Shown piece after piece: positions 1 through 20,000 of a DNA stretch of 20,000 bases (within the stretch, counting starts at the first letter, position 1; the number at the start of each line of letters is the position of its first letter). The DNA is taken from IMG/VR virus record IMGVR_UViG_3300042878_002054. One strand, written 5' to 3'. The notes beneath the pieces were generated by a model that made no database searches, was not told the origin of the DNA, and was given only the letters and a program-made list of their open reading frames with translations. The stretch comes from an uncultured virus (IMG/VR IMGVR_UViG_3300042878_002054). Taxonomy: Duplodnaviria; Heunggongvirae; Uroviricota; Caudoviricetes. The translations under genes and the position numbers were made by a program.

Positions 1-401
1 AAAGGAATAGAGGAACTATCACTACATGTAGCTATCTTTCTTACCGGAATCTTATCTAAAAAGTTGATATATTTCTTAGTTGTGGTGTCGTTATTTGGAA
101 ATAGATAATCATATAGATAATCAATATCGTCTATGAATATAAAGTCTATTCCATCTTTTAAAGAAATCTCTTCTATTACTTTGAGTGTATTTATATTGTT
201 TTCGTCGTCAGAGGATAAAAATCGACATAACTCGTATCTTTGATTAAGAAAGTGTGTTTTCTCTTCAAATTCGTTTGTAGCTGCCAAAAATATTATTTTC
301 ATGTTTAGTTGAGACTTCATATCATAAGCAAGTGCATGCAACGCAGAGCTTTTCCACGTAGCATTACTACCTACTATTATATTGAAGTTATTTTCAAACA
401 T
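1..401 (-). CDS. Partial (runs off left edge) degenerate P-loop NTPase-like protein
   Basis: Not in ORF track. ATG at 401-399 overlaps the stop of the upstream gene (TAATG) and the frame is open to position 1: MFENNFNIIVGSNATWKSS...IDFIFIDDID. Walker A-like GSNATWKS (W in place of G) and Walker B-like FIFIDD. Confidence 0.65.
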   Translation of the reverse strand, partial: MFENNFNIIVGSNATWKSSALHALAYDMKSQLNMKIIFLAATNEFEEKTHFLNQRYELCRFLSSDDENNINTLKVIEEISLKDGIDFIFIDDIDYLYDYLFPNNDTTTKKYINFLDKIPVRKIATCSDSSSIP

Positions 402-1189
402 TATTTATAAGGACAATTTTGTTTCCATTTAGGGTTATACCAAAAAGTTCTTCCGGTGTTGTCTCTACATGATAAGCCTTTCTGATAGAATACCCATTTG
501 AGGAACTCTTCATAGTCTGTATCGAACGGATTCTTCCAATCTTGTAGCTGACCACCATTGAGTTGGTAAGCTTTCATCGGAATATCTCTACACATGTCAA
601 GTATCTCTGGATTTCTTTTTATGACTAAGCGAGCTTCCTCAAAAGGATCAACATCAAGATAGTAAAGAATCGTCGATCTCAAATAGTTTCCAATCCCGTT
701 AAAGTACTTCTGTTCTAAAAGAGCTTCACAGATTGGTTTACTGAAAGGCTTCAGATGAAGATTGTCTACGACGTTGGTTTTAAAGGTTTCAAACTCTTTA
801 GTTGGGTCCGGACCTCTTTTTGTAGCAAATCCACCTACTTTGTATTTTGGTCCCATATAGAGGCCGTAAAGAAGTAAAGACCAGCCATCGGTTGTATCCA
901 TTCGCATTCTGACAAACTTTCTATCAGTCCAATCTTTGGTGGGTATCCAGAGCCAGTTCCCTGACATTCCCATAAAGACGGATATCTTAAAAGATGCAAC
1001 ATCATGATATACTTTTAATACTAATTCTTTACCATTAGATTCAGATTCAAGACGGAAATCTCCATCTGCAAGTGTAAATTCCGAAGGAATATTGCCTTTC
1101 GCTACATCGTATATCTTGTTGAATTTCTTTTCTTTGGCATTGACGTTTATATAGTCAGCCATTATTTTTAATTCTGCTAATTCAGGCAT
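401..1189 (-). CDS. Fpg/Nei family DNA glycosylase/AP lyase, NEIL1-like (zincless finger)
   Basis: N-terminal MPE catalytic motif, GKEL, GMSG, H2TH motif ICEALLEQKYFNGIGNYLRSTILY, C-terminal D-x-x-GRT-x-W with no four-Cys zinc finger. Confidence 0.93.
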   Translation of the reverse strand: MPELAELKIMADYINVNAKEKKFNKIYDVAKGNIPSEFTLADGDFRLESESNGKELVLKVYHDVASFKISVFMGMSGNWLWIPTKDWTDRKFVRMRMDTTDGWSLLLYGLYMGPKYKVGGFATKRGPDPTKEFETFKTNVVDNLHLKPFSKPICEALLEQKYFNGIGNYLRSTILYYLDVDPFEEARLVIKRNPEILDMCRDIPMKAYQLNGGQLQDWKNPFDTDYEEFLKWVFYQKGLSCRDNTGRTFWYNPKWKQNCPYK

Positions 1190-1436
1190 CTAATATGTCG
1201 TTTATTTTTTCGTTTCTTATCAAGTCTTGGTTTAGCTCAATGAGTTCTCTTAGTGATATTTCTCTAGTTACCCATCTACCATGACCAGCATCACTTGTAC
1301 CGGGATTCTCTGTTCCAAACCAAACAACACATTTTGTTCGTTCGTATGTAATATATAGCCCATTGAATTCAGTCTCCATAGAAACCAATATTCCTTCACC
1401 ATATGGTGTGTTTACTTTACTATGTATTCTTAACAT
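1182..1436 (-). CDS. Hypothetical protein (SH3-like N-terminus, C-terminal RNEKINDIL tag)
   Basis: 84-aa ORF overlapping both neighbours; KVNTPYGEGILV resembles an SH3/KOW-like beta barrel start. Confidence 0.7.
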   Translation of the reverse strand: MLRIHSKVNTPYGEGILVSMETEFNGLYITYERTKCVVWFGTENPGTSDAGHGRWVTREISLRELIELNQDLIRNEKINDILDA

Positions 1437-6892: not shown

Positions 6893-7450
6893 TTATTTGT
6901 TGAAAATATCGTCGATTTTTTTATCACGGATATATCCAGTCTTTAAAGAATCAAGTGTTGCTGTCCAACCATCAATTTTATTTGTTAGCCAAATTTCTGA
7001 TCTAGTGGCCATATAGCCAGAAATACTATTAGGTGCCGAATCTTTGTATTCTGACTTTACATGAAAGTCTGCAACATCTTCAGAGTCTTTATAGATGTAT
7101 TCTTTTGCTACTATTATATAGTCTATACCTAACTCGTCGATTAGTTCTTTGTATTTAGGTATAAGACCCCGACTAAGAGTCCAAAAGTCAAATATCATTA
7201 GATTAACTCTGAATCTATTTGCGGGATCTTCAATCTTAGATTTAAAATCTTCAAAGTCATTAAAAGTTATCTGTGGTGATATGTAATAAATAAGATTTGT
7301 GATGTTTTTTCCTGAAGAAGTTGGTTTTGGTGATGTGAACAATATAGGATTTCTACCATCTAATTCCAAAAATTTAACAATAGAACTTACTGCACTTGAA
7401 ACACATGCTATGTCTCCAGTAAAATAATTACAACGCTTTAGCTCTATCAT
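6893..7450 (-). CDS. Hypothetical protein (possible degenerate P-loop fold; C-terminal RDKKIDDIF tag)
   Basis: 185-aa ORF; NYFTG... and LMIFD sit at Walker A/B-like positions but there is no GK[ST]. Confidence 0.75.
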   Translation of the reverse strand: MIELKRCNYFTGDIACVSSAVSSIVKFLELDGRNPILFTSPKPTSSGKNITNLIYYISPQITFNDFEDFKSKIEDPANRFRVNLMIFDFWTLSRGLIPKYKELIDELGIDYIIVAKEYIYKDSEDVADFHVKSEYKDSAPNSISGYMATRSEIWLTNKIDGWTATLDSLKTGYIRDKKIDDIFNK

Positions 7451-7895: not shown

Positions 7896-8657
7896 ATGGG
7901 ATTCAATTATAATTTCACCTATATAATCAGTTATAGACATAGTGTAGAAAGACTGAATAATCTAAAAAGAACATTGGAGTGGATAAACGCTTTTTCCGGT
8001 GCAGAGATTATTATAGTAGAACAGGACAAGCATTCAAAGCTTAAAGACATCAAATTACCATGTAGACATATTTTTATAAAATCAAACATGCCTTTCAACA
8101 AGTCTTGGGGATTCAATGTAGGATTAAAATATGCGAATTCAAACGTAATAGTATTTGGTGATTCTGATTTGATAATGGACCCACAAGAGTTTATCAAATC
8201 TGTAAAGATGTTAGACCAATACGAGATGGTCAATCCTTATAACTCTGTTATTGACCTAACTCCACAAGAATCTGGTGCCGGTTTTGAACAGATAATGCAA
8301 ATCAACAGAGCAGGTAGAGGAGAAACTGATATTCAGAAAGTTCCTTTATGTGGTGGAATCTGTATCTTTAGAAGAGAAGCTATACATAAGATTGGTGGAT
8401 GGCACGAGGACTTTATCGGTTGGGGCGGAGAAGATGATTTTCAGTCAGTTAAGGTAAAAGCATTCTTAAACTGGTATGAAAATAAAGCAAAATGTTTCCA
8501 TATCTATCACGATAGATCTGCACCAGATATGAAATGGTATCAAAGAAATCTTCAACTTCTTCAAAAACTTAGTCCAATGAATAAAGAAGAGTTGCAAAAA
8601 GTGATAAACAACGTCACTCCAAAATCAGGTTTGAAATACAAATATGACAACTTTTAA
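7896..8657 (+). CDS. GT-A glycosyltransferase (GT2 / galactosyltransferase GT7-C-like)
   Basis: IIIVEQD, FNKSWGFNVG, DSD (DxD), GGWHEDFIGWGGEDDF, FHIYH. Confidence 0.9.
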   Translation: MGFNYNFTYIISYRHSVERLNNLKRTLEWINAFSGAEIIIVEQDKHSKLKDIKLPCRHIFIKSNMPFNKSWGFNVGLKYANSNVIVFGDSDLIMDPQEFIKSVKMLDQYEMVNPYNSVIDLTPQESGAGFEQIMQINRAGRGETDIQKVPLCGGICIFRREAIHKIGGWHEDFIGWGGEDDFQSVKVKAFLNWYENKAKCFHIYHDRSAPDMKWYQRNLQLLQKLSPMNKEELQKVINNVTPKSGLKYKYDNF

Positions 8658-9378
8658 TGATAAACTAAAATCAATCTGTAACTACTCTGAAGAAAATAAG
8701 AGTATAGGTCCAACTGCCCAATTGATGTATATGGATATGATAGTAGAAGACGACGAGACTAGAAGAGAGGTAAAGAGAAAGAAAAGAAATCTTACAATAG
8801 ACACCGTTTTAGATGAGGTAGACGAAAACGGAGACTACACATCTGAGACAATATCTTCAGAAGAAGGATCTATTGCGACAATATCTCCAAAGATCATGAC
8901 TCTAAATACTCAATCAAATCCTTTTGTAGATGATGAGAGTTTATACAATAATGTAATCACATTTTTAGAAAGTAACACAAAACAAAAACACCATTATCCA
9001 ATAAGTCTTGATTATGTGGCGATGAACGACCCACATAGTACATTAGAGGAAAACAACGCAATAAACTTCAGAAGGATTATAACAAAGATTGCACACGCAT
9101 CCAACTTTATCGCAGCAGAAGGAAGAATGGGTCCAGGAACCGCAGTGATTGTCGGTAGAAATAACTGGCATTGGTTCGATAGTCAATCAGATTTTATGCT
9201 TGGAACTATTTCTATTATATTAGATGAAAACATTAGTCCAAATAAGATTATAGTCGCTCGTGGTGGTAGAATGGATCAGAGTGGTATTATATGTGTAAAA
9301 AGTATACCAGATAATACTTATTGTCTAAAAGAAACTCCACATTGGGAAAAACAATATGTATGGTTTACTGTAAAATAA
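8644..9378 (+). CDS. Hypothetical protein with a C-terminal segment resembling part of T4-type major capsid protein gp23
   Basis: IITKIAHASNFIAAEGRMGPGTAVIVG ... IILDENISPNKIIVARGG recalls gp23 'IARQTGRGEGNFII ... VYIDQY...FTVGYKG' (recalled, not aligned). Confidence 0.55.
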   Translation: MTTFNDKLKSICNYSEENKSIGPTAQLMYMDMIVEDDETRREVKRKKRNLTIDTVLDEVDENGDYTSETISSEEGSIATISPKIMTLNTQSNPFVDDESLYNNVITFLESNTKQKHHYPISLDYVAMNDPHSTLEENNAINFRRIITKIAHASNFIAAEGRMGPGTAVIVGRNNWHWFDSQSDFMLGTISIILDENISPNKIIVARGGRMDQSGIICVKSIPDNTYCLKETPHWEKQYVWFTVK

Positions 9379-9379
9379 G

Positions 9380-9404
9380 AAAAGCACTCATTTGAGTGCT
9401 TTTT
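9380..9404. terminator. Bidirectional intrinsic terminator
   Basis: AAAA-GCACTC-attt-GAGTGC-TTTTT between convergent genes. Confidence 0.85.
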
Positions 9405-9960
9405 ATGTATATTGAAGTTTTTTTGCTGGTATTCTTACCTTATCATATTTAGTAAGTAACTTATAAAGTTTTTCCCATTCTTCTTTAGGATTTCTAACGA
9501 TTCTTTCATACCATTTATTGTTGTTCTGATACTCTACAACCATTCCTATTTTAAGATCCTCTTGAGATTTTGGTTTCCAATATCTAGTCTTTTCTACAAA
9601 AGAAAATGATATTCCACTATGTATGTATGATTTGTTTGATTCGTTAGTATTGTACATTACTATCTCTAATGGTTCTTCTGAACCGTTAAAGAAAACTCTT
9701 TTGGCTTCTGACTCACCTAAATATTTTATGATTGCGTTTTTTTCGTTGAAATGTCCTAAAAGAAAAAGAACATCGTTTCTAAGTTCATCGTTGTCTGTTC
9801 TACCAAATGCCATTATTGAATCTTCGAACATACCTTCAAAATATCCTTTTATTGGAAGTATTTGATAGTTCTTTGCATACAATACTGATGTAATCTGATC
9901 CAGATTTTCAGAAGAAGAAATAAGCATGTATGAAGTGTTTGGTTGTTCTAATCCTAGCAT
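9403..9960 (-). CDS. Hypothetical two-domain protein (ferredoxin-like DUF3293/SAM-lyase-like N-domain; SH3-like C-domain)
   Basis: ORF is solid. GYFEGMFEDS...FNEKNAII and LKIGMVVEY...KW patterns give only tentative fold calls. Confidence 0.55.
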   Translation of the reverse strand: MLGLEQPNTSYMLISSSENLDQITSVLYAKNYQILPIKGYFEGMFEDSIMAFGRTDNDELRNDVLFLLGHFNEKNAIIKYLGESEAKRVFFNGSEEPLEIVMYNTNESNKSYIHSGISFSFVEKTRYWKPKSQEDLKIGMVVEYQNNNKWYERIVRNPKEEWEKLYKLLTKYDKVRIPAKKLQYT

Positions 9961-10005: not shown

Positions 10006-11277
10006 TTAAAAAAGGTGAAATTCCTCATAAAGCTTTGTTTTGAATATGGCTTCGACCTCATCTCTTTTATTTCTTGGTATTATTATACTATCGTGAACAG
10101 TAACTATTTTTATTTCTGGAAAAGAATTTTTAACTTCTCGTATTATTTTATTGAAGATTAAATTAGACTCTGCTTTTTGTAGTTCATATGCCAAAACTTT
10201 ATAGTCTCCTTTTTCCTTTTTGTATAGTTTTATGAAATTGTGTATAGTTGGAAATAGTTCTCTGAACACTTTGTCTGCTTTGCTATTGTGAACGTTTCTT
10301 CCAAATAAGACTTTGTACGTCATTTCTTTGACCATAGGACGATCATTTGTCTTCATATGATTCATTACGTGTTGGTAGTAGTTTCCGTTTACCGTAAGGT
10401 CTCTAAATAGCTCAAACTCCTCGGTGTTTACCCATTTAGAGTTACTATCTGCTATTATCTTAGTAAGGAACAAAGGTTGACTATTCTTTATGTCAATCTC
10501 ATGTGTTTCCTCACCATCCAATAAAAGACAGTTCTTTCTAATGAAAGATTTTAATATAGTGAAGTTTGTGTGCATTCTTCCGTAACTATCAAAATGATAG
10601 AATATATGTTTGTCGTTCACACATTCAACAGAGTATCTGTTTCTGTTATATATGTCAGTGTCGTTGTGTTGAAGATTATCTAAATAGAATATGGCTCTAT
10701 CAAACTCTATCTTTGTATAGAATAGGTCGTCTACAAGCATCGCTTTTATATCTGCGTCTATTAATCCATTTTTTATTCCATCTTCTTCTACTTGTGATAC
10801 CTTGTTTTTGTACTTCTTCAAAAGAGTCGTGTCTTTGTTGACGTATCTCTTTATTTTTCCTTTAAGTATGTGTTCTGATATCTTATAGACTTTGGCGTTT
10901 CTACCTGCTCTATAGTTTGCGACCATAGATATGGTCTTCGTTTCTATTAGATAGTCCATATAGTAGTTGTATAGGTGTCCGTACTTCTCTTTGAGAATGG
11001 TGGACATGAGATGAAATCTGTTGTCTTTTTTGAAATAGTATTTCAGTATTAAGTTGTGGACTATATCTAAAGCATATGAAGACTTTAGTTTTTGACCTTT
11101 ATATTCGAAGTTTTTGTTTTTTGAAAATTCCTCCATCGATTCTGGTAAAAACTGAAGACTGTGTTTTTTGTCTTCTAGTTTCTTTCTGATATTGGAATAG
11201 CCACTGATTTTGAATAATGGTACGATTGAATTTTCACTCATACATTTTATATCCACTAGTTCAGGATATGTTTTCAT
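10006..11277 (-). CDS. Divergent family-A / T7-RNAP-like palm-domain nucleotide polymerase, no exonuclease
   Basis: GRMHT pre-motif, motif A EIDIKNSQP, motif B RPMVKEMTYKVLFG, FPTIHNFI, LQKAES, motif C TVHDSII. Confidence 0.75.
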   Translation of the reverse strand: MKTYPELVDIKCMSENSIVPLFKISGYSNIRKKLEDKKHSLQFLPESMEEFSKNKNFEYKGQKLKSSYALDIVHNLILKYYFKKDNRFHLMSTILKEKYGHLYNYYMDYLIETKTISMVANYRAGRNAKVYKISEHILKGKIKRYVNKDTTLLKKYKNKVSQVEEDGIKNGLIDADIKAMLVDDLFYTKIEFDRAIFYLDNLQHNDTDIYNRNRYSVECVNDKHIFYHFDSYGRMHTNFTILKSFIRKNCLLLDGEETHEIDIKNSQPLFLTKIIADSNSKWVNTEEFELFRDLTVNGNYYQHVMNHMKTNDRPMVKEMTYKVLFGRNVHNSKADKVFRELFPTIHNFIKLYKKEKGDYKVLAYELQKAESNLIFNKIIREVKNSFPEIKIVTVHDSIIIPRNKRDEVEAIFKTKLYEEFHLF

Positions 11278-11489
11278 GATTCGTAAATTTTGCGAACCTT
11301 TGATCTTCTACCTGAAGTTCTGTTAATATCCTTCCATTCTTTCATAAGAGTTGCCTCTATTTCAGAGACATGGTCCATACCATACATACTCTGTAAATCA
11401 GTCGCTAGCTCGCGGGTCCATTGAGCACGCAAAGGTCTTGTCTCTGTTTTTACTTCAACAGAGGTCATCTTTAAATCTATAGATTTCAT
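11274..11489 (-). CDS. 71-aa protein resembling an internal fragment of T4-type major capsid protein gp23
   Basis: VEVKTETRPLRAQWTRELATDLQSMYGMDHVSEIEATLMKE versus gp23 'IEAKSRQLKAAYSIELAQDLRAVHGMDADAELSGILATE' (recalled); start/stop overlaps with both neighbours. Confidence 0.7.
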   Translation of the reverse strand: MKSIDLKMTSVEVKTETRPLRAQWTRELATDLQSMYGMDHVSEIEATLMKEWKDINRTSGRRSKVRKIYES

Positions 11490-12859
11490 TATTTGATTGG
11501 AGCTTTAGGTTCTTCTTCTACTACTTGTTCTTCAGGAATCGCAGGTCCTTTACCACCTTTACCTTTTTTCTTTTTGTCTGTCGCAGCACCTTTTGTGAAC
11601 TCATCATATACGTCAGGATAAACTTCACCTTCCGCATCAGTATCGTATTGAATATCGAAGAAATCACCAAAGTCTAATAAACCAGACCTCGTAAGTTCAA
11701 GTTCATGAATCTTATTTAGATAGTTATCAATGTGTTTACTGATATCATCTATGAAAAGATTTAAAAGTTTTACGGTATTTTCTGTAAAAACTCCGATTGG
11801 TTTTTTTCTTTTTTTGTTAAAAGAACCTAATATCACTTTGAATATGTACTCAAGTTTTGGACTTTCGTTTATGTATTCTTTTGTAAGTTTATTTTCAATC
11901 AATTCTGTGTTTATCTTAAACTTGTCTTTATCAAAAAATTCAGGAACTATAAACTCAAAATCTAATAAGTCTTGTTTTAGTTCTCCAATATAGAAGTTAA
12001 AAAGTTTACACATCAAATAGATATAGATGTCATCTTTTTTCTCTCCTTTCATTTTTATATCCTTTAAGTCTATCGATTGACAGAAATTCAAAAAGTTCAC
12101 TAATATCAAAGTGTATATTTCAACAAAGTCGGTGCTATTTGAATCACTTACTCTTGTGTAGAGAGGGTTTAAAAGTTCAAAAGAAACATCTTTTATTTTT
12201 GATCGAATTATTAACTTTTCAATGTTTGATTGGAATTCGTCTTCCATTAAGAAAGAGTTTTCTGATGCAGGATTAAGTATTTTGTAAAAGAAGAAAGCAA
12301 AGTTTTTTTCTCCAAAAACATATTCTAAATCTTCTTCACTTGTATTTAAGAAGTATTTAATGGCTTCTATCATTCTTTCTGATAAAACACCTTGAAACAT
12401 TATAGGAAGCATATCTACATCAAACAATCTAGCATATTCGTCTATCTCATCTATGATAAAATCATACTTTCCACTTTTATAGATTGCACTTAAAACAAGT
12501 TTGTTCTTAGGCATTCTTTCATATTCAATGTTTGCTGGTTGGTTGTCCGGAAAGTATTCAAAACAAAACCACCATTTTTTGTTCAAAAGAGATTTTACTC
12601 TTATATCTAAAGAGTTAAGATAATCTATTGCAGGATTGTAATAATTCTGCATTGCCAAATCGACAAGATTTATTTCTTGATTGCTTATAGACTTTGGTTT
12701 GATAGAAAAGTCTTTTCCATTCCAGTTTGCCCAGATTTTTGATCCTTGAACGTCTTCGAATACAACTATTTCGTTTGCGAAAATTTCGTCTAACAAAGTT
12801 TGACTTTCGGTTTCGTTAAGATTTATCAGTTTTCCCATATTTTTGTTATAGTCTTCCAT
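11489..12859 (-). CDS. Hypothetical protein with degenerate RNA/DNA-ligase (nucleotidyltransferase)-like N-domain
   Basis: VFEDVQGS (motif I without Lys), FCFEY, LPIMFQG, IEKLIIR, FELLNP in ligase motif order. Start moved to ATG 12859 because the longer start runs through the divergent promoter region. Confidence 0.55.
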   Translation of the reverse strand: MEDYNKNMGKLINLNETESQTLLDEIFANEIVVFEDVQGSKIWANWNGKDFSIKPKSISNQEINLVDLAMQNYYNPAIDYLNSLDIRVKSLLNKKWWFCFEYFPDNQPANIEYERMPKNKLVLSAIYKSGKYDFIIDEIDEYARLFDVDMLPIMFQGVLSERMIEAIKYFLNTSEEDLEYVFGEKNFAFFFYKILNPASENSFLMEDEFQSNIEKLIIRSKIKDVSFELLNPLYTRVSDSNSTDFVEIYTLILVNFLNFCQSIDLKDIKMKGEKKDDIYIYLMCKLFNFYIGELKQDLLDFEFIVPEFFDKDKFKINTELIENKLTKEYINESPKLEYIFKVILGSFNKKRKKPIGVFTENTVKLLNLFIDDISKHIDNYLNKIHELELTRSGLLDFGDFFDIQYDTDAEGEVYPDVYDEFTKGAATDKKKKGKGGKGPAIPEEQVVEEEPKAPIK

Positions 12860-12885
12860 TTGATTTTTGTTTTTTATCAATAGGT

Positions 12886-12942
12886 TATATATATAAAATT
12901 GATATGGTGCTTTTTTAAACAAACATGTCGGGTACATATATA
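12886..12942. promoter_or_regulatory. Divergent pair of TATATA elements (putative late promoters)
   Basis: Minus-strand TTATATATATA at about 12897-12886 before ATG 12859; plus-strand ACATATATA at 12934-12942 before ATG 12950. Confidence 0.45.
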
Positions 12943-12949
12943 ATGTCAT

Positions 12950-13888
12950 ATGAAGAAACTGCTATTTATTGTGCCTCATCTTTCCACAGGAGGAATGCCA
13001 CAATTCGTTTTAAAACAGATAGAGATTCTAAAAGAGGAATACGACATATCTCTTGTAGAATGGGAAAATATAACAGGTGGAGTATATGTCGTTCAAAGAA
13101 ATGCAGTAGAAAGTATTCTTGGTTCTAAGTTTTATAGTCTTAGTTTAAATAAAACAGAACTTCTGAGTATTTTGTCTGATGTCGAACCAGATATAGTTCA
13201 TTTTCATGAAATACCAGAAACGTTTGTCAATGTTGGAATACTAAACAACATCTATTCTGCAGATAGAGACTATCATATAGTAGTGACGACACATTCGTCA
13301 ACCACTAATCCATCTACTATAAAATATACTGCAGATAGATATGTTCTTGTTTCTGAATGGAGTAAAGATGTCTTTGATAAATTCTTCAAAGGTGAGATTG
13401 AGTGTGAGGTCTGGGAGTATCCTATTGAGAAATATGAATATGACAAAGATTCTGCAAAAGAAGAGCTAGGTTGGAACAAAGACTACAAACATATTTTGAA
13501 TGTTGGTTTATTTACAAGAGGTAAAAATCAAGGTGAGCTTTTTGAACTAGCAAAAGAATTCGAAAATGAAAAGGTTATGTTTCATTTCGTAGGAAATCAA
13601 GCAGTAAACTTCAAAGACTATTGGGGTCCTATTATGGAATCAATACCTAAAAATTGTATTGTTCATGGAGAACGAAACGACGTAGATAAGTTCTACAAAG
13701 CCGCAGACCTTTTTTACTTTACTTCCAACTTTGAATTAAGTCCTTTGGCAGTGAAAGAGGCTTTGAGTTATAACTTACCTACATTCATAAAAAAGTTACA
13801 CACATACAAAAACATGTATGATGAGAAAGTAACCTATATAGTAGGTGACAAATCTGAAAATAAAAAGAATATATTAAGATATGTATAA
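12950..13888 (+). CDS. GT-B glycosyltransferase, GT4-like
   Basis: PHLSTGGMPQ, PDIVHFH, LNVGLFTRGKNQ, FYKAADLFYFTSNFELSPLAVKEALSYNLP (E-x7-E). Confidence 0.92.
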   Translation: MKKLLFIVPHLSTGGMPQFVLKQIEILKEEYDISLVEWENITGGVYVVQRNAVESILGSKFYSLSLNKTELLSILSDVEPDIVHFHEIPETFVNVGILNNIYSADRDYHIVVTTHSSTTNPSTIKYTADRYVLVSEWSKDVFDKFFKGEIECEVWEYPIEKYEYDKDSAKEELGWNKDYKHILNVGLFTRGKNQGELFELAKEFENEKVMFHFVGNQAVNFKDYWGPIMESIPKNCIVHGERNDVDKFYKAADLFYFTSNFELSPLAVKEALSYNLPTFIKKLHTYKNMYDEKVTYIVGDKSENKKNILRYV

Positions 13889-15902
13889 AGCATTGAAAAA
13901 AAATCCTAATCCAATAAAGGATGTAAATCCTATAAAATTTATATGCAACTACAACGAAGGTGCTTATTTAGAAGTTCAGTCGGAACTTGAAAGAAAATTC
14001 AAAGTTGAATTTACCAACTCAAAAGGTCAGATTGAATACTCTACTGAGATTGGATCAAATATGTGGTGTAGAACCAGTAAAAAATATGTAGAAGAATACA
14101 CATGTACCGTAAAGGACGAATCGGGTAAAATAGTCTTTGTTGAAAAGTACAATCCTACAGGCAAAAGAGTTTATATAACACTCGAATCAAAATCACTTGG
14201 TGATACTATGGCTTGGTTTCCTTATATTGACGAATTTAGAAAAAAGTGGAAATGTACTGTAGTTTGTTCAACATTCCACAACAATCTTTTTATAGACCAA
14301 TATCCTGATCTTGAGTTTGTATCACCAGGAACAAACGTGCCTGAAATATATGCAACCTATAGAATAGGTTTATTCTTTATGAATGAAAAAATTGATTATA
14401 GTAAGCATAGAAAAAATCCTACAAAGATTTCATTGTTAGAAATGGCTACAGATATACTTGGATTGGAATACTCTGAGATTAGACCAATATTGAGACCATC
14501 ACGAGTAGAAAAGAAAAAGAAAAGAGTTGGTATCGGAATGCATTCGACTGCACAGACGAAGTATTGGAACAACCCAACAGGATGGCAAGAGTTAACAGAC
14601 TTTTTGTTACTACAGGGTTATGAAGTAGTTATGATGTCTAAAGAGGCAGATGGTTATATGGGTAACTTTTATCCAAAAGGAGTTATTAAACTTCCAGAAA
14701 ACTCATTTGATGATTTGATTGATAATCTTTACTCTTGTGAGTTCTTTATTGGAATAAGTAGTGGACTTAGTTGGCTTGCTTGGGCGGTGAATATACCGGT
14801 AGTACTTATATCTGGATTTACAGGAGAGTATATGGAACCCACAGACAATGTAATAAGAATAATAGAAAAAAGTGTTTGTAACGATTGTTGGGCTAGACAT
14901 AAATTTGATCCAGGAGATTGGAACTGGTGTCCTGACCACAAAGGAACTCCAAGACAATTCGAATGTAGCAAATCGATAACACCGGAGATGGTCATCGAAT
15001 CTATGATATCAAACGGACTTTTAGGCGGAGAAAAGATTGTAAAGGACACTATAAAGTCTATCATATTCTATTCCGACGCAAACTACGAGTATCAAGCCAA
15101 ATCATTGGTGGAATCGATATTGATGAACACGGAAGAAGACATTAAAATGTTTTATTACACTATAGGATTTGAGTCTTCTATAGAACATGAAAGACTTACT
15201 AAAATCGAGATACCTATCGATGCGAGCAAGCCTACGGGATATAGAACTTTTGAGTTTTACAAACCAAACATTATATTAGAGCATTTGGATAGATTTGGTG
15301 GAAAAGCACTTTTCTTAGATACTGATATCATAGTAGGTAGAAGATTTGATATTAATTACTTTGAGAATAAAAACGATTATCCGTTATTGGCAAATGGTAA
15401 CTGGTCTTATCCTTATGCGTTTGAAGGAACACAAAGATATGACGAGGGTGCTTTGATGAAGTATTTTGGAGTATCTGAAAGATCAATGGAATATGTTTAT
15501 TCCAACATAATAAGCTTTTCTGAAAGATGTAGAGACTTTATAATGGAGTGGAAATCTATATGTGATAATCAGTATCTTCTTTCAAAGAGAAAAGTATTTT
15601 TCCCGTTTCCTGATGAGACTGCCATAAATGTAGTTCTTTGGAAAAGAAACGCGACAAAAAACCTTGGAAGAGTATATCTAAATACTTTAGAGTTTGAACC
15701 TTTTGAATATGTTGAGAAAAACGACGATATAAAAGGAGATCCTAAAATAAACAACGGAATAATGGGAAGTGATCTTTTAAGATGTGACAACTCATCTAAA
15801 ATAATGTTATATCATGGAATAAAAGATAAAGATGTTCTTGATAAAGTTGTTGAGTATATGAAAGTCAAAAATGAAAAAGTTAAATCTTTACAAACATTAT
15901 AA
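13881..15902 (+). CDS. TibC/Aah-like protein O-heptosyltransferase fused to a C-terminal GT-A (GT8-like) domain
   Basis: SLGDTMAWFPY (D108), STAQTKYWNNPTGW, FFIGISSGLSWLAWA, VVLISGF and four-Cys site C333/C336/C350/C362 (CNDCW...WCPDHKGTPRQFECSKSIT); C-terminal FYKP, LFLDTDII, DETAINV, YHG. Confidence 0.9.
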   Translation: MYKALKKNPNPIKDVNPIKFICNYNEGAYLEVQSELERKFKVEFTNSKGQIEYSTEIGSNMWCRTSKKYVEEYTCTVKDESGKIVFVEKYNPTGKRVYITLESKSLGDTMAWFPYIDEFRKKWKCTVVCSTFHNNLFIDQYPDLEFVSPGTNVPEIYATYRIGLFFMNEKIDYSKHRKNPTKISLLEMATDILGLEYSEIRPILRPSRVEKKKKRVGIGMHSTAQTKYWNNPTGWQELTDFLLLQGYEVVMMSKEADGYMGNFYPKGVIKLPENSFDDLIDNLYSCEFFIGISSGLSWLAWAVNIPVVLISGFTGEYMEPTDNVIRIIEKSVCNDCWARHKFDPGDWNWCPDHKGTPRQFECSKSITPEMVIESMISNGLLGGEKIVKDTIKSIIFYSDANYEYQAKSLVESILMNTEEDIKMFYYTIGFESSIEHERLTKIEIPIDASKPTGYRTFEFYKPNIILEHLDRFGGKALFLDTDIIVGRRFDINYFENKNDYPLLANGNWSYPYAFEGTQRYDEGALMKYFGVSERSMEYVYSNIISFSERCRDFIMEWKSICDNQYLLSKRKVFFPFPDETAINVVLWKRNATKNLGRVYLNTLEFEPFEYVEKNDDIKGDPKINNGIMGSDLLRCDNSSKIMLYHGIKDKDVLDKVVEYMKVKNEKVKSLQTL

Positions 15903-18591: not shown

Positions 18592-20000
18592 ATGAACTAC
18601 AATTTGACGGGAGCGACAGTTTCTTCTACCTATGGTAGACTGGTACAGACTATAAACGGATCTTTTTACGATGGATATGGAAGTCTACTGAATCCATTTG
18701 GAGCTACGACCAGTAATATATCGATTCTTTGGACAGGTGACTGGGACCAGGATATGAATTACTATATGATGGATGCAGTCAAATACAATGGCAATACATA
18801 TGTCTGTATAGATGGAGACTACTACTATACAGCCACCGCTCCTTTCGATTCTCCTGACCAACTCATGAGTGGCACTGCATCAACCTGGGCATTATTCACA
18901 CCATCAACTGTTTTGAACTCAAGCACTTTCATGCTTGACGTATATGATACTATCTCCAACGAAGGAACAGGAAGATTGTTGGTTTCTGATGGAACTTCTT
19001 ATAAGTCTGTAGCTCAAGAAAATCTTACTTTTGATGGTTCGACACTTACAATAAACGGAAATCTGAGAGTAATCGGAACTACATCGACGATAGGTTCTGA
19101 GAATCTTATAGTAAAAGATCCTATCATTGTACTGGCAGATGGACAGACAGGAACACCATCTTTTGATGCTGGTTTTTTTGTAAATAGAGGAACTGGTGCA
19201 ACTCAGGCTATGATATGGGATGAATCAGAAGACGAATTCGCGTTCGTTCAGACAAATAGTAATTCAAATGTCTATGGAAACGTAAGTATCGCTACATATT
19301 CGAATATGAGGGCAAATATAGGAAACTTCTCTAATATAGAAGCTATAGGTGCGACTTTTTCATATGTAGATATCGATGATATATCAGTAAGTTTAGGATT
19401 CATATCAGAGTTGGAGGTAGATAACATAATAGGAGACTCTGCATCGTTTTCAAGTATATTTGTTACAAACGCAACTTTCTCAAATGTATCTATATCGGAC
19501 ACAATCACAAATACTCTTGTTATAACCAATCTTAGTGCGACATCATCTGCTGTAAAATATGTTGTGATAGATGATGCAGGTGATACTTATTATCAGGAAA
19601 GAGAACCTAGTACTTCTGGAACTTCTGGTACATCAGGAACTTCTGGAACATCAGGAACTTCTGGTACATCAGGAACTTCTGGGACTACAGGAACTTCAGG
19701 AACTTCTGGAACTTCGGGGACTACAGGAACTTCTGGTACATCAGGAACTACGGGTACTTCTGGTACTTCTGGAACTTCTGGTACATCAGGGACTTCTGGT
19801 ACTTCTGGTACATCAGGAACTACGGGTACTTCGGGTACTTCGGGGACTACAGGAACATCAGGAACTACGGGTACTTCTGGTACTTCTGGAACATCAGGAA
19901 CTACGGGAACTTCTGGAACTTCTGGAACTACGGGTACTTCTGGTACTTCTGGAACATCAGGAACTACGGGTACTTCGGGGACTACAGGAACTTCTGGTAC
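18592..20000 (+). CDS. Partial (runs off right edge) virion fibre/adhesin-like protein with CBM5/12-like module and (Gly-Thr-Ser/Thr)n repeat
   Basis: Not in ORF track (no stop in window). [19 protein letters not shown]...[27 protein letters not shown]...[37 protein letters not shown]...DAGFFVNRG...[10 protein letters not shown]...[14 protein letters not shown]. Confidence 0.85.
19612..20000 (+). repeat. 9-bp coding tandem repeat, about 43 units in window, encoding T-(S/T)-G
   Basis: Units ACT TCT GGA / ACT TCT GGT / ACA TCA GGA / ACT ACA GGA / ACT ACG GGT, all in frame; continues past the window edge. Confidence 0.97.

Follow-up and report, generated by a model that had tools for sequence, protein, structure and literature searches.

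Our analysis concerns a 20,000-nt stretch of an uncultured virus of the Caudoviricetes (IMG/VR record IMGVR_UViG_3300042878_002054; this whole stretch is called the window below) and, within it, a mini-gene encoding 71 amino acids (aa) that is a real, selected, stand-alone protein of two modules, a fragment of the P-domain of the T4-type major capsid protein gp23 and a short basic tail. The mini-gene is an intact open reading frame (ORF) with an ATG start; its complete product is MKSIDLKMTSVEVKTETRPLRAQWTRELATDLQSMYGMDHVSEIEATLMKEWKDINRTSGRRSKVRKIYES, with the C-terminus ...GRRSKVRKIYES. Base 11489 is common to the TAA of the upstream gene (p486), where it is the last A, and to the ATG of the mini-gene, where it is the A, and the TGA of the mini-gene (11274-11276) overlaps the ATG of the downstream ORF (p423; 11275-11277). 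Through these overlapping stop and start codons the mini-gene is translationally coupled to both neighbours. Its parts were delimited with an AlphaFold2 (AF2) model, alignments, column statistics and motif counts:

11274..11489, minus strand: the mini-gene, 71 aa, family A (gp23 P-domain fragment plus basic tail), defined by its ORF, the Pfam Gp23 match, its homologues and the ratio of non-synonymous to synonymous substitution rates (dN/dS)
11415..11489, minus strand: residues 1-25, extended segment MKSIDLKMTSVEVKTETRPLRAQWT, equivalent to the E-loop return and long P-domain beta-strand of gp23 (AF2, alignments, column statistics)
11280..11414, minus strand: residues 26-70, a short helix (26-36) and a long helix (40-70), equivalent to the pre-spine helix and the spine helix of gp23 (AF2)
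11277..11321, minus strand: residues 57-71, basic tail RTSGRRSKVRKIYES, motif R-[KR]-x-[SK]-[IV]-x-[KN]-I-[FY] (motif counts)

By sequence the mini-protein is a member of the Gp23 family, since it passes the curated gathering cut-off of Pfam PF07068 (38.4 bits against 24.4, E 1.3e-9), with residues 2-56 aligned to positions 132-187 of the 376 in the profile. It also matches PHROG 138, 'major head protein' (E 3.3e-9), and in BLASTP it is 37% identical to residues 259-304 of the 521-residue T4 gp23 (E 4e-8) and 36% identical to residues 201-262 of gp23 of the Synechococcus phage S-RSM4 (E 2e-10), the match to gp24 being weaker (E 1e-3). Module 1 (residues 1-56) has its homologue in a single element of T4-type major capsid proteins, about residues 250-306 of T4 gp23. 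The AF2 model, built from 90 sequences and with a mean predicted local distance difference test score (pLDDT) of 86, agrees with the T4 alignment on the part of the capsid protein that was copied. In terms of the HK97 fold we assign three elements to this head: the strand by which the E-loop returns to the P-domain sheet, the short helix that comes next and the N-terminal half of the spine helix. Residues 1-25 are modelled without helix (pLDDT 77-85) and are the best-conserved part of the head in column statistics over 148 members, while the middle (residues 34-56) tolerates in-frame deletions, 14 aa being missing in loci L032 and L034. With this model, Foldseek found no match in the PDB at E <= 0.001, and a wide VIA-align search returned generic long-helix rows only (Z <= 4.2).

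The mini-protein shares with T4-type gp23 its sequence over 55 residues and the order of strand, short helix and long helix, but no more than 15% of the profile is covered. With the N-arm, the first E-loop strand, the A-domain and the C-terminal strands missing, it is unable to adopt the HK97 fold, and at 71 aa and with a partial profile match it is not a complete HK97 fold able to form capsomers. It differs from gp23 further by its extra basic tail, its own start and stop codons, its place in a non-structural operon and its membership of a separate family. It is not located with scaffold, protease or portal genes, its neighbours being Rnl2-like, PolA-like and glycosyltransferase genes, and a Pfam scan of the window ORFs found no full-length capsid gene in the 20,000 nt. 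A megablast search of the mini-gene region against phage records gave no match. The mini-protein is thus a homologous fragment of a capsid protein and not a capsid subunit.

The original prediction, made from the letters of the DNA, had described an intact ORF overlapping both neighbours, and the ORF coordinates confirm it. The gp23 motif that it cited is found in the mini-protein, S-RSM4 gp23 and T4 gp23 alike, the gp23 profile match by which it could be checked is significant, as given above, and its view that the product is too short for a capsid subunit is borne out by the 56 of 376 profile positions matched and by a model that consists of an extended arm and two helices. It had also placed the gene outside any head-gene cluster, which holds in so far as the window has no full-length capsid gene, but needs amending for an HK97-fold paralogue 1.9 kb away at 8644..9378.

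The mini-gene family and its selection

When proteins of 39-125 aa were searched, all 62 of the 62 candidates were homologues, all of them 41-71 aa long, 55-92% identical and metagenomic. A profile search of 1.84 billion cluster representatives (50% identity, any length) gave 262 representatives at E <= 1e-3, 23 of them at E <= 1e-10. Among the best 150 of these 262, 92 had at most 80 aa, and most align from residue 1 to about residue 70; full-length capsid proteins (551-669 aa) enter only at about E 1e-6 and on profile positions 4-51. A tblastn search with a distant member, P0092, matched 846 phage records, and among the 30 matches listed all lie in capsid genes or unannotated stretches; a locus search with P0092 alone found no locus.

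Across the 12 loci for which DNA was available, dN/dS (Nei-Gojobori, pairs with dS >0.05) was below 1 in 65 of 65 pairs, with a median of 0.29 and a range of 0.15-0.57; the version based on pairwise alignments reached a maximum of 0.69. By segment, dN/dS was 0.23 in codons 1-21 (dS 0.24), 0.14 in codons 22-33 (at a saturating dS of 1.6), 0.39 in codons 34-56 (dS 0.86) and 0.35 in codons 57-71 (dS 0.65), and the tail codons vary synonymously across loci. In the neighbouring genes dN/dS is 0.01-0.1 in most pairs, the values of up to 0.46 coming from short partial p486 matches such as that of L034, and in L036 the mini-protein is 58% identical against 86-92% for its neighbours. The mini-protein sequence therefore evolves several times faster than both neighbours. 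Homologues with random boundaries and neutral evolution were the outcome that, in the original prediction, would have pointed to pseudogene debris; the boundaries are instead kept at 41-71 aa, and debris is refuted by the intact frame and conserved ends (62/62), by dozens of clusters at 50% identity and by the dN/dS values.

The 5' end of the mini-gene has a history of its own. Codons 1-21, together with the last 25 nt of p486, are near-identical in DNA in 10 of the 12 loci, against a dS of more than 1 in the flanks. L028 and L035 retain the same strand peptide through synonymous changes, which indicates that the peptide encoded by this block is selected. The predicted RNA fold of the mini-gene is no better than that of shuffled sequences (z -1.26; 22 of 200 shuffles fold as well), and Rfam gave no match for it. 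Twelve metagenome loci have a complete mini-gene, and in two of them p486 and the mini-gene are separated by a mobile gene on the opposite strand, which encodes 294 or 361 aa with DUF723/DUF4379 zinc-finger repeats:

L036:4679-5764, minus strand: copy of the mobile gene
L032:2746-3630, minus strand: copy of the mobile gene

The mobile gene is probably of the free-standing homing-endonuclease type. Its C-terminal motif looks nuclease-like by eye. It is inserted just upstream of the homogenised 5' block, which suggests that the low 5' dS results from co-conversion during homing; because of this position in L032 and L036, the low dS has a simpler explanation than an RNA element.

A tail shared by otherwise unrelated small proteins

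The tail (residues 57-71) is a separate module common to otherwise unrelated small proteins of the same phages. Its core motif occurs in 118 of the 148 members of family A, usually two residues from the end. The first clue to other ORFs with this tail came from weak Pfam matches in small frames of two complete records of uncultured megaphage relatives, LR745206.1 (634,780 bp) and LR756502.1 (642,428 bp). Among the 7,663 stop-to-stop frames of at least 30 aa in LR745206.1, the tail regular expression matched 15, against 2 when reversed and a mean of 2.2 (maximum 6) in 20 shuffles of the tail, and it had no match in 39 kb of T4 and S-RSM4. A looser expression found 7 matches among the LR745206.1 ORFs of at least 150 aa and 6 in the control, so enrichment of the tail is limited to small ORFs.

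The heads to which the tail is joined vary. Family B combines the gp23 spine helix with a C-terminus ...KRRKNSINKIF, in a 62-aa ORF of LR745206.1 and its counterpart in LR756502.1; it comprises 98 proteins, all but two of 52-79 aa (the outliers having 40 and 98 aa), many of them with a PF07068 match, and the tail is its most conserved part. A 75-aa ORF of LR745206.1 resembles the C-terminal P-domain strands, by eye nearer to the resident capsid protein, and ends in ...RKRKIENIF, and an 83-aa ORF has scaffold-like NI[AS]YSEY repeats and ends in ...RKKKIKNLF. The three capsid-derived heads, those of family A, family B and the 75-aa ORF, are all P-domain elements. About a dozen more tail ORFs were found in LR745206.1, and two further ORFs in the window itself. 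The first of these two has an orthologue in LR745206.1 that keeps the tail and ends in ...SYRRDKKINDIFGDEEN; the second matches only the widened expression.

L017:1468-1653 and L016:1453-1674, both plus strand: family B ORFs, LR745206.1 and LR756502.1
6893..7450, minus strand: 185-aa ORF of the window ending in ...GYIRDKKIDDIFNK (C-terminus also given as ...IRDKKIDDIFNK), from the tail scan
1182..1436, minus strand: 84-aa ORF of the window ending in ...LIRNEKINDILDA (C-terminus also given as ...IRNEKINDILDA), a looser tail match
255010-255385, 261394-261504, 308165-308380 and 460435-460834: part of the dozen or so further tail ORFs of LR745206.1 (L131-L149)
482015-482179, 597879-598758 and 608315-608497: the rest of this same dozen or so tail ORFs of LR745206.1 (L131-L149)

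With the mini-gene, three of the 76 window ORFs carry the tail. Shuffled sequences averaged 0.05 and never reached three in 200 trials, a significance that is overstated because the expression was widened after the hits had been seen. The tail ORFs sit after or between the genes of unrelated operons (DnaJ, PrkA/DUF444, methyltransferase), and some close an operon, with a convergent gene next. Their positions include one after DnaJ and one between PrkA and DUF444. Some of the further tail ORFs of LR745206.1 have heads resembling the C-terminus of the resident capsid protein or the scaffold repeats.

Short docking tails are known from other systems. The C-termini of T4 gp43 (...KASLDFLFG) and gp55 (...PSLDFLYEAND) share the pattern S-[LI]-x-x-[LI]-[FY] with ...KSIKNIF and ...NSINKIF, and the clamp-binding SLDFL[FY] tails of T4 resemble the megaphage tail in being one short C-terminal motif on several unrelated proteins of a single phage; they are acidic, whereas the megaphage tail is basic. 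Encapsulin cargo-loading peptides are another kind of shared docking tail. A search for a sliding clamp in the relatives gave only 10 bits for PF09116 on a 262-aa ORF and nothing for PF02768. This ORF (L153:1432-2220, minus strand, record G002) has an acidic tail, the 10-bit gp45-slide_C match and a collinear, non-significant BLASTP alignment to T4 gp45; it had no PDB match and no significant gp45 match, and it is possible that it is a divergent sliding clamp. Three scaffolding or scaffold-like proteins also end in short amphipathic tails with R-[FW], namely T4 gp22 (...AKVASRF), S-RSM4 g22 (...ALDRWSK) and the resident scaffold-like ORF (...AIMERFKNI), although their resemblance to the tail of the mini-protein is only loose.

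The locus and the phages that carry it

The mini-gene is part of a module with the order p486, mini-gene, p423, p185, p244 (where present) and GT2, a glycosyltransferase gene, which is kept in 13 of 13 metagenome loci as far as their contigs reach. A p423 profile located the module in 80 viral loci, 64 of them unique, and the mini-gene is present in 45 of the 64 and absent in 19. In 11 of these 19 the gap between the stop codon of p486 and the ATG of p423 is only 11-56 nt. Together with the absences, these short gaps indicate that the mini-gene was gained (or lost) as an insert between genes that work without it. Synteny holds down to 54% identity of the neighbour gene, and p486 is syntenic in all loci that extend to it. 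The other features of the window are as follows:

11489..12949, minus strand: p486, 486 aa, Rnl2-like, RNA-ligase-like as a lead only (ESM Atlas neighbours with PF09414 RNA_ligase, 0.93-0.94)
10006..11277, minus strand: p423, 423 aa, family-A DNA-polymerase palm-like as a lead only (first ESM Atlas match 'DNA polymerase family A palm domain-containing', 0.97)
9403..9960, minus strand: p185, a conserved 185-aa gene of the same operon (ORF list, synteny), with no family assigned
8644..9378, plus strand: p244, 244 aa, a compact, complete HK97-fold paralogue of the resident capsid protein (BLASTP, AF2, Foldseek)
12950..15902, plus strand: glycosyltransferase run (GT1, GT9-like, GT2)
18592..19998, plus strand: collagen-triple-helix repeat protein running off the end of the window
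401..1189, minus strand: Fpg/Nei-like glycosylase, below Pfam cut-offs

Sequence searches of Pfam, NCBIfam and the PDB gave no match for p486 or p423. By eye, p486 has an Rnl2-like motif I with an aspartate at the usual lysine position (EDVQGSKIW), and p423 has motifs like those of family-A polymerases (GRMHTNF, EIDIKNSQP, VLFGRN, VHDS).

Where p244 matches the resident capsid protein, in the C-terminal part of the latter, the identity is 32% (E 8e-10). Its AF2 model has a pLDDT of 81.5 and a predicted template modelling score of 0.74, and Foldseek matched it to 101 PDB entries at E <= 1e-3, all phage head or capsid entries among the 36 matches listed. Since a long strand (79-93) and a spine helix (97-111) are already present in the model, p244 does not need the mini-protein to supply them. 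It is found in 34 of the 64 unique loci, always alongside the mini-gene, and the mini-gene occurs without it in 11 of 45, of which L039, L047 and L114 end before the p244 position; in the close relatives L026 and L035 the mini-gene is present and p244 has been lost. A split capsid protein completed by p244 was ruled out by p244's own strand and helix and by the loci in which the mini-gene occurs alone. Encoded amid glycosyltransferase genes and evolving rapidly, with 27-76% identity between relatives, p244 might be a penton-like protein, a shell protein or a decoy.

The mini-gene was inserted in one subclade of uncultured aquatic megaphages with genomes of about 600 kb, all of its relatives being uncultured aquatic megaphages. 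Two IMG/VR contigs of relatives, of 94.7 and 134.6 kb, are 16% and 23% complete according to CheckV, which by arithmetic puts the genome near 590 kb. The two complete relatives come from a subsurface sample in Japan (LR745206.1) and a freshwater lake in France (LR756502.1) and are sister to the marine Mar_Mega_1 (PMC9723777, in excerpt). A single full-length Gp23-family gene (frames of 567 and 572 aa) was found in each of the two complete records, about 11-20 kb from the mini-gene, and in related records the full-length capsid gene lies about 19-20 kb away and adjoins a scaffold-like ORF. The mini-protein has no BLASTP similarity to the 567-aa capsid protein of the closest contig. In lineages without the mini-gene and p244, a full-length capsid gene (L068:6342-8096, minus strand, 584 aa) directly adjoins the GT2 of the module, an arrangement which implies that the module and the capsid gene were once neighbours.

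Possible roles of the capsid fragment

A piece of the capsid protein thus seems to have been put to a new use. A family hidden Markov model built from the 148 members and scored against capsid proteins gave 60-66 bits for eight canonical gp23-type proteins, 54 bits for S-RSM4 gp23, 38 bits for T4 gp23 and 20 bits for T4 gp24. In a tree of the segment (a quick search on 72 columns and 127 rows, with 7 of 122 branches well supported), the resident capsid proteins fall on a long branch (1.65), placed weakly inside the mini-protein group, and are almost invariant among themselves in the copied segment (branch lengths 0-0.055). The head may have been taken over from a T4-like phage or may descend from an ancestral version of the resident gene; the profile scores favour canonical gp23, and the tree does not decide between the two.

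We lean towards competitive mimicry of the capsid P-domain surface as the job of the mini-protein, which, all readings of this kind taken together, we hold to be somewhat more probable than the alternatives combined. The head would present the conserved P-domain surface of the unassembled capsid protein and would compete for whatever binds that surface, the tail would dock the peptide on a conserved hub, and a decoy of this kind would be made from a non-structural operon. As to the target, our tentative suggestion is a host sensor of freshly synthesised capsid protein, with the mini-protein as its decoy or competitive inhibitor; after it, the likeliest targets are morphogenesis of the phage itself and a T4-like competitor. 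Several defence systems are reportedly triggered by capsid proteins (editorial PMC13728456, in excerpt). The beta-sheet and spine helix of the capsid P-domain are the predicted contact site for the antitoxin domain of CapRel, and escape mutations are found there as well (PMC9712102, in excerpt); CapRelSJ46 senses this P-domain in the SECphi27 protein Gp57. The mini-protein copies the equivalent element of gp23, P-domain strand and spine helix. Mimicry is plausible in view of this predicted contact site and of the capsid-derived heads, which are all P-domain elements. The known sensor triggers (Gp57, gp23) are whole capsid proteins, whereas the mini-protein is a stand-alone fragment, and we found in the literature no natural stand-alone capsid fragment that acts as a decoy. 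Nor did full-text literature yield free-standing phage capsid-fragment proteins, although supplementary tables of megaphage papers might list such ORFs as hypothetical. Phage satellites use capsid-protein homologues for interference, SaPI Ccm being one example. Like the mini-protein, Ccm is a capsid-derived protein used beyond the standard capsid of its own element, but proteins of the Ccm type are complete, co-assembling HK97-fold proteins and not fragments of 71 aa, and p244 would be the closer analogue.

The original prediction, which had proposed a decoy for capsid-sensing defences on the model of Lit and CapRel, is in part supported. The CapRel analogy stands as far as the copied region goes, which is the one that the sensor is predicted to contact. 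The Lit analogy fails because the Gol peptide, the part of T4 gp23 that Lit senses, lies within the first quarter of gp23 (PMC3014915, in excerpt) and the mini-protein aligns at residues 259-304; a Lit/Gol mimic was thus ruled out. The ending that was noticed as a tag of this one gene had not been seen to be shared with other proteins.

A number of observations weigh against a decoy for a host sensor. The four resident megaphage capsid proteins score only 25-28 bits with the family model, and since the head scores nearer to canonical gp23, a sensor tuned to the resident capsid protein is not obviously a binder of it. A mimic of a trigger might activate the sensor instead of blocking it. An arms-race surface would typically vary, but the strand and first helix show strong conservation. 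A tail that is also found on the 185-aa protein at 6893..7450 and on ORFs in the unrelated DnaJ and PrkA/DUF444 operons has no obvious function in a decoy. Host prediction for Mar_Mega_1 was unsuccessful (PMC9723777, in excerpt). Finally, metatranscriptome contigs of relatives span p185, p423 and p486, and one of them enters the mini-gene and then diverges, but although they come from RNA libraries they are not proof that the mini-gene is transcribed.

Among the other explanations, a part in the phage's own head morphogenesis, in which the tail attaches to the procapsid's inner face or to the scaffold and the fragment modulates the contact between capsid and scaffold, or in which the peptide is packaged and injected, is unlikely in our judgement while keeping real weight. 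It would fit the other tail ORFs of LR745206.1 that by eye resemble resident capsid C-terminal strands or scaffold-like repeats, the loose similarity of the tail to the scaffolding C-termini (gp22, g22 and the resident ORF), and the high conservation of the tail, as expected for a partner encoded by the phage itself. The mini-gene is, however, part of a non-structural operon, with the capsid gene about 19-20 kb away, and it is not a core assembly factor because it is missing from 19 of the 64 related unique loci; moreover, the resident capsid protein is near-invariant in the segment (0-0.055) while the mini-protein diverges fast, with a head nearer to canonical gp23 than to the resident protein. 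That last property would suit a dominant-negative protein whose strand and helix insert into, or cap, the capsid contacts of co-infecting T4-type myoviruses and poison their head assembly, as would the scores of the family model (54-66 bits for canonical gp23-type proteins against 25-28 for the resident capsid proteins), the P0092 matches, spread over 846 phage records and, among those listed, in capsid genes or unannotated stretches, and an accessory distribution with fast evolution. We nevertheless regard it as improbable: stopping the late assembly of a competitor would not save a host that has already been taken over, the segment tree gives no resolved foreign origin and the shared tail is left unexplained. 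A tail found on several unrelated proteins behaves like a hub-binding motif, and it could make the mini-protein an adaptor or accessory subunit of the neighbouring enzymes, docked on a hub such as a sliding clamp, its capsid origin being historical only; the stop/start overlaps with both neighbours and the S-[LI]-x-x-[LI]-[FY] pattern common to the T4 gp43/gp55 and megaphage tails point the same way. This is quite unlikely, given that the two enzyme genes abut without the mini-gene in 11 sister loci, that no clamp was found with PF09116 (10 bits) or PF02768 (nothing), that other tail ORFs lie in unrelated operons and that the megaphage motif is short and basic where that of T4 is acidic.

The peptide itself might also matter little, the mini-gene being a leader ORF for translational coupling or a DNA or RNA element. 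The start and stop overlaps, the wedging of other tail ORFs between genes and the block that joins the final 25 nt of p486 to codons 1-21, near-identical in 10 of 12 loci (dS 0.24 in these codons against 1.6 in the next 12), would be expected in that case. It is very unlikely, since the protein is kept through synonymous changes (the strand in L028 and L035, the tail codons throughout) with a dN/dS of 0.14 at saturating dS, the RNA fold does not exceed that of shuffles and has no Rfam match, some tail ORFs end an operon before a convergent gene, and co-conversion explains the low 5' dS more simply. Pseudogene debris, or a scar of recombination or of a homing endonuclease, would account for a fragment of a larger gene beside which a mobile gene inserts in 2 of 12 loci, but is scarcely credible for an intact frame with conserved ends, dN/dS below 1 in 65 of 65 pairs and synteny down to 54% neighbour identity.

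Mimicry of the P-domain surface, our preferred reading, may also be only one part of a larger scheme. It is conceivable, though on present evidence unlikely, that a shared addressing tail brings varied heads, three of them pieces of the capsid P-domain and one a piece of scaffold, to one hub, as a set of structural-protein mimics that would blind host sensors of virion proteins or tune the assembly of a very large capsid. If true, such a shared-tail mimic set would represent a hitherto undescribed type of system.

There is growing evidence that bacterial immunity is commonly triggered by capsid proteins, and the phage countermeasures described are, to our knowledge, mostly point mutations in the capsid gene. 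The family is widespread, with hundreds of sequence clusters in freshwater and marine metagenomes, and each member is a free-standing copy of an element that one sensor is predicted to contact. If the decoy reading were true, it would make natural fragment mimicry a form of counter-defence, one that points directly at the surface recognised. For annotation, a Pfam Gp23 match on an ORF of 60-70 aa should not be taken for a broken capsid gene. Whatever the function, giant phages repeatedly turn pieces of structural proteins into small genes, and the conserved tail should lead to its hub in phages that have not yet been cultured.

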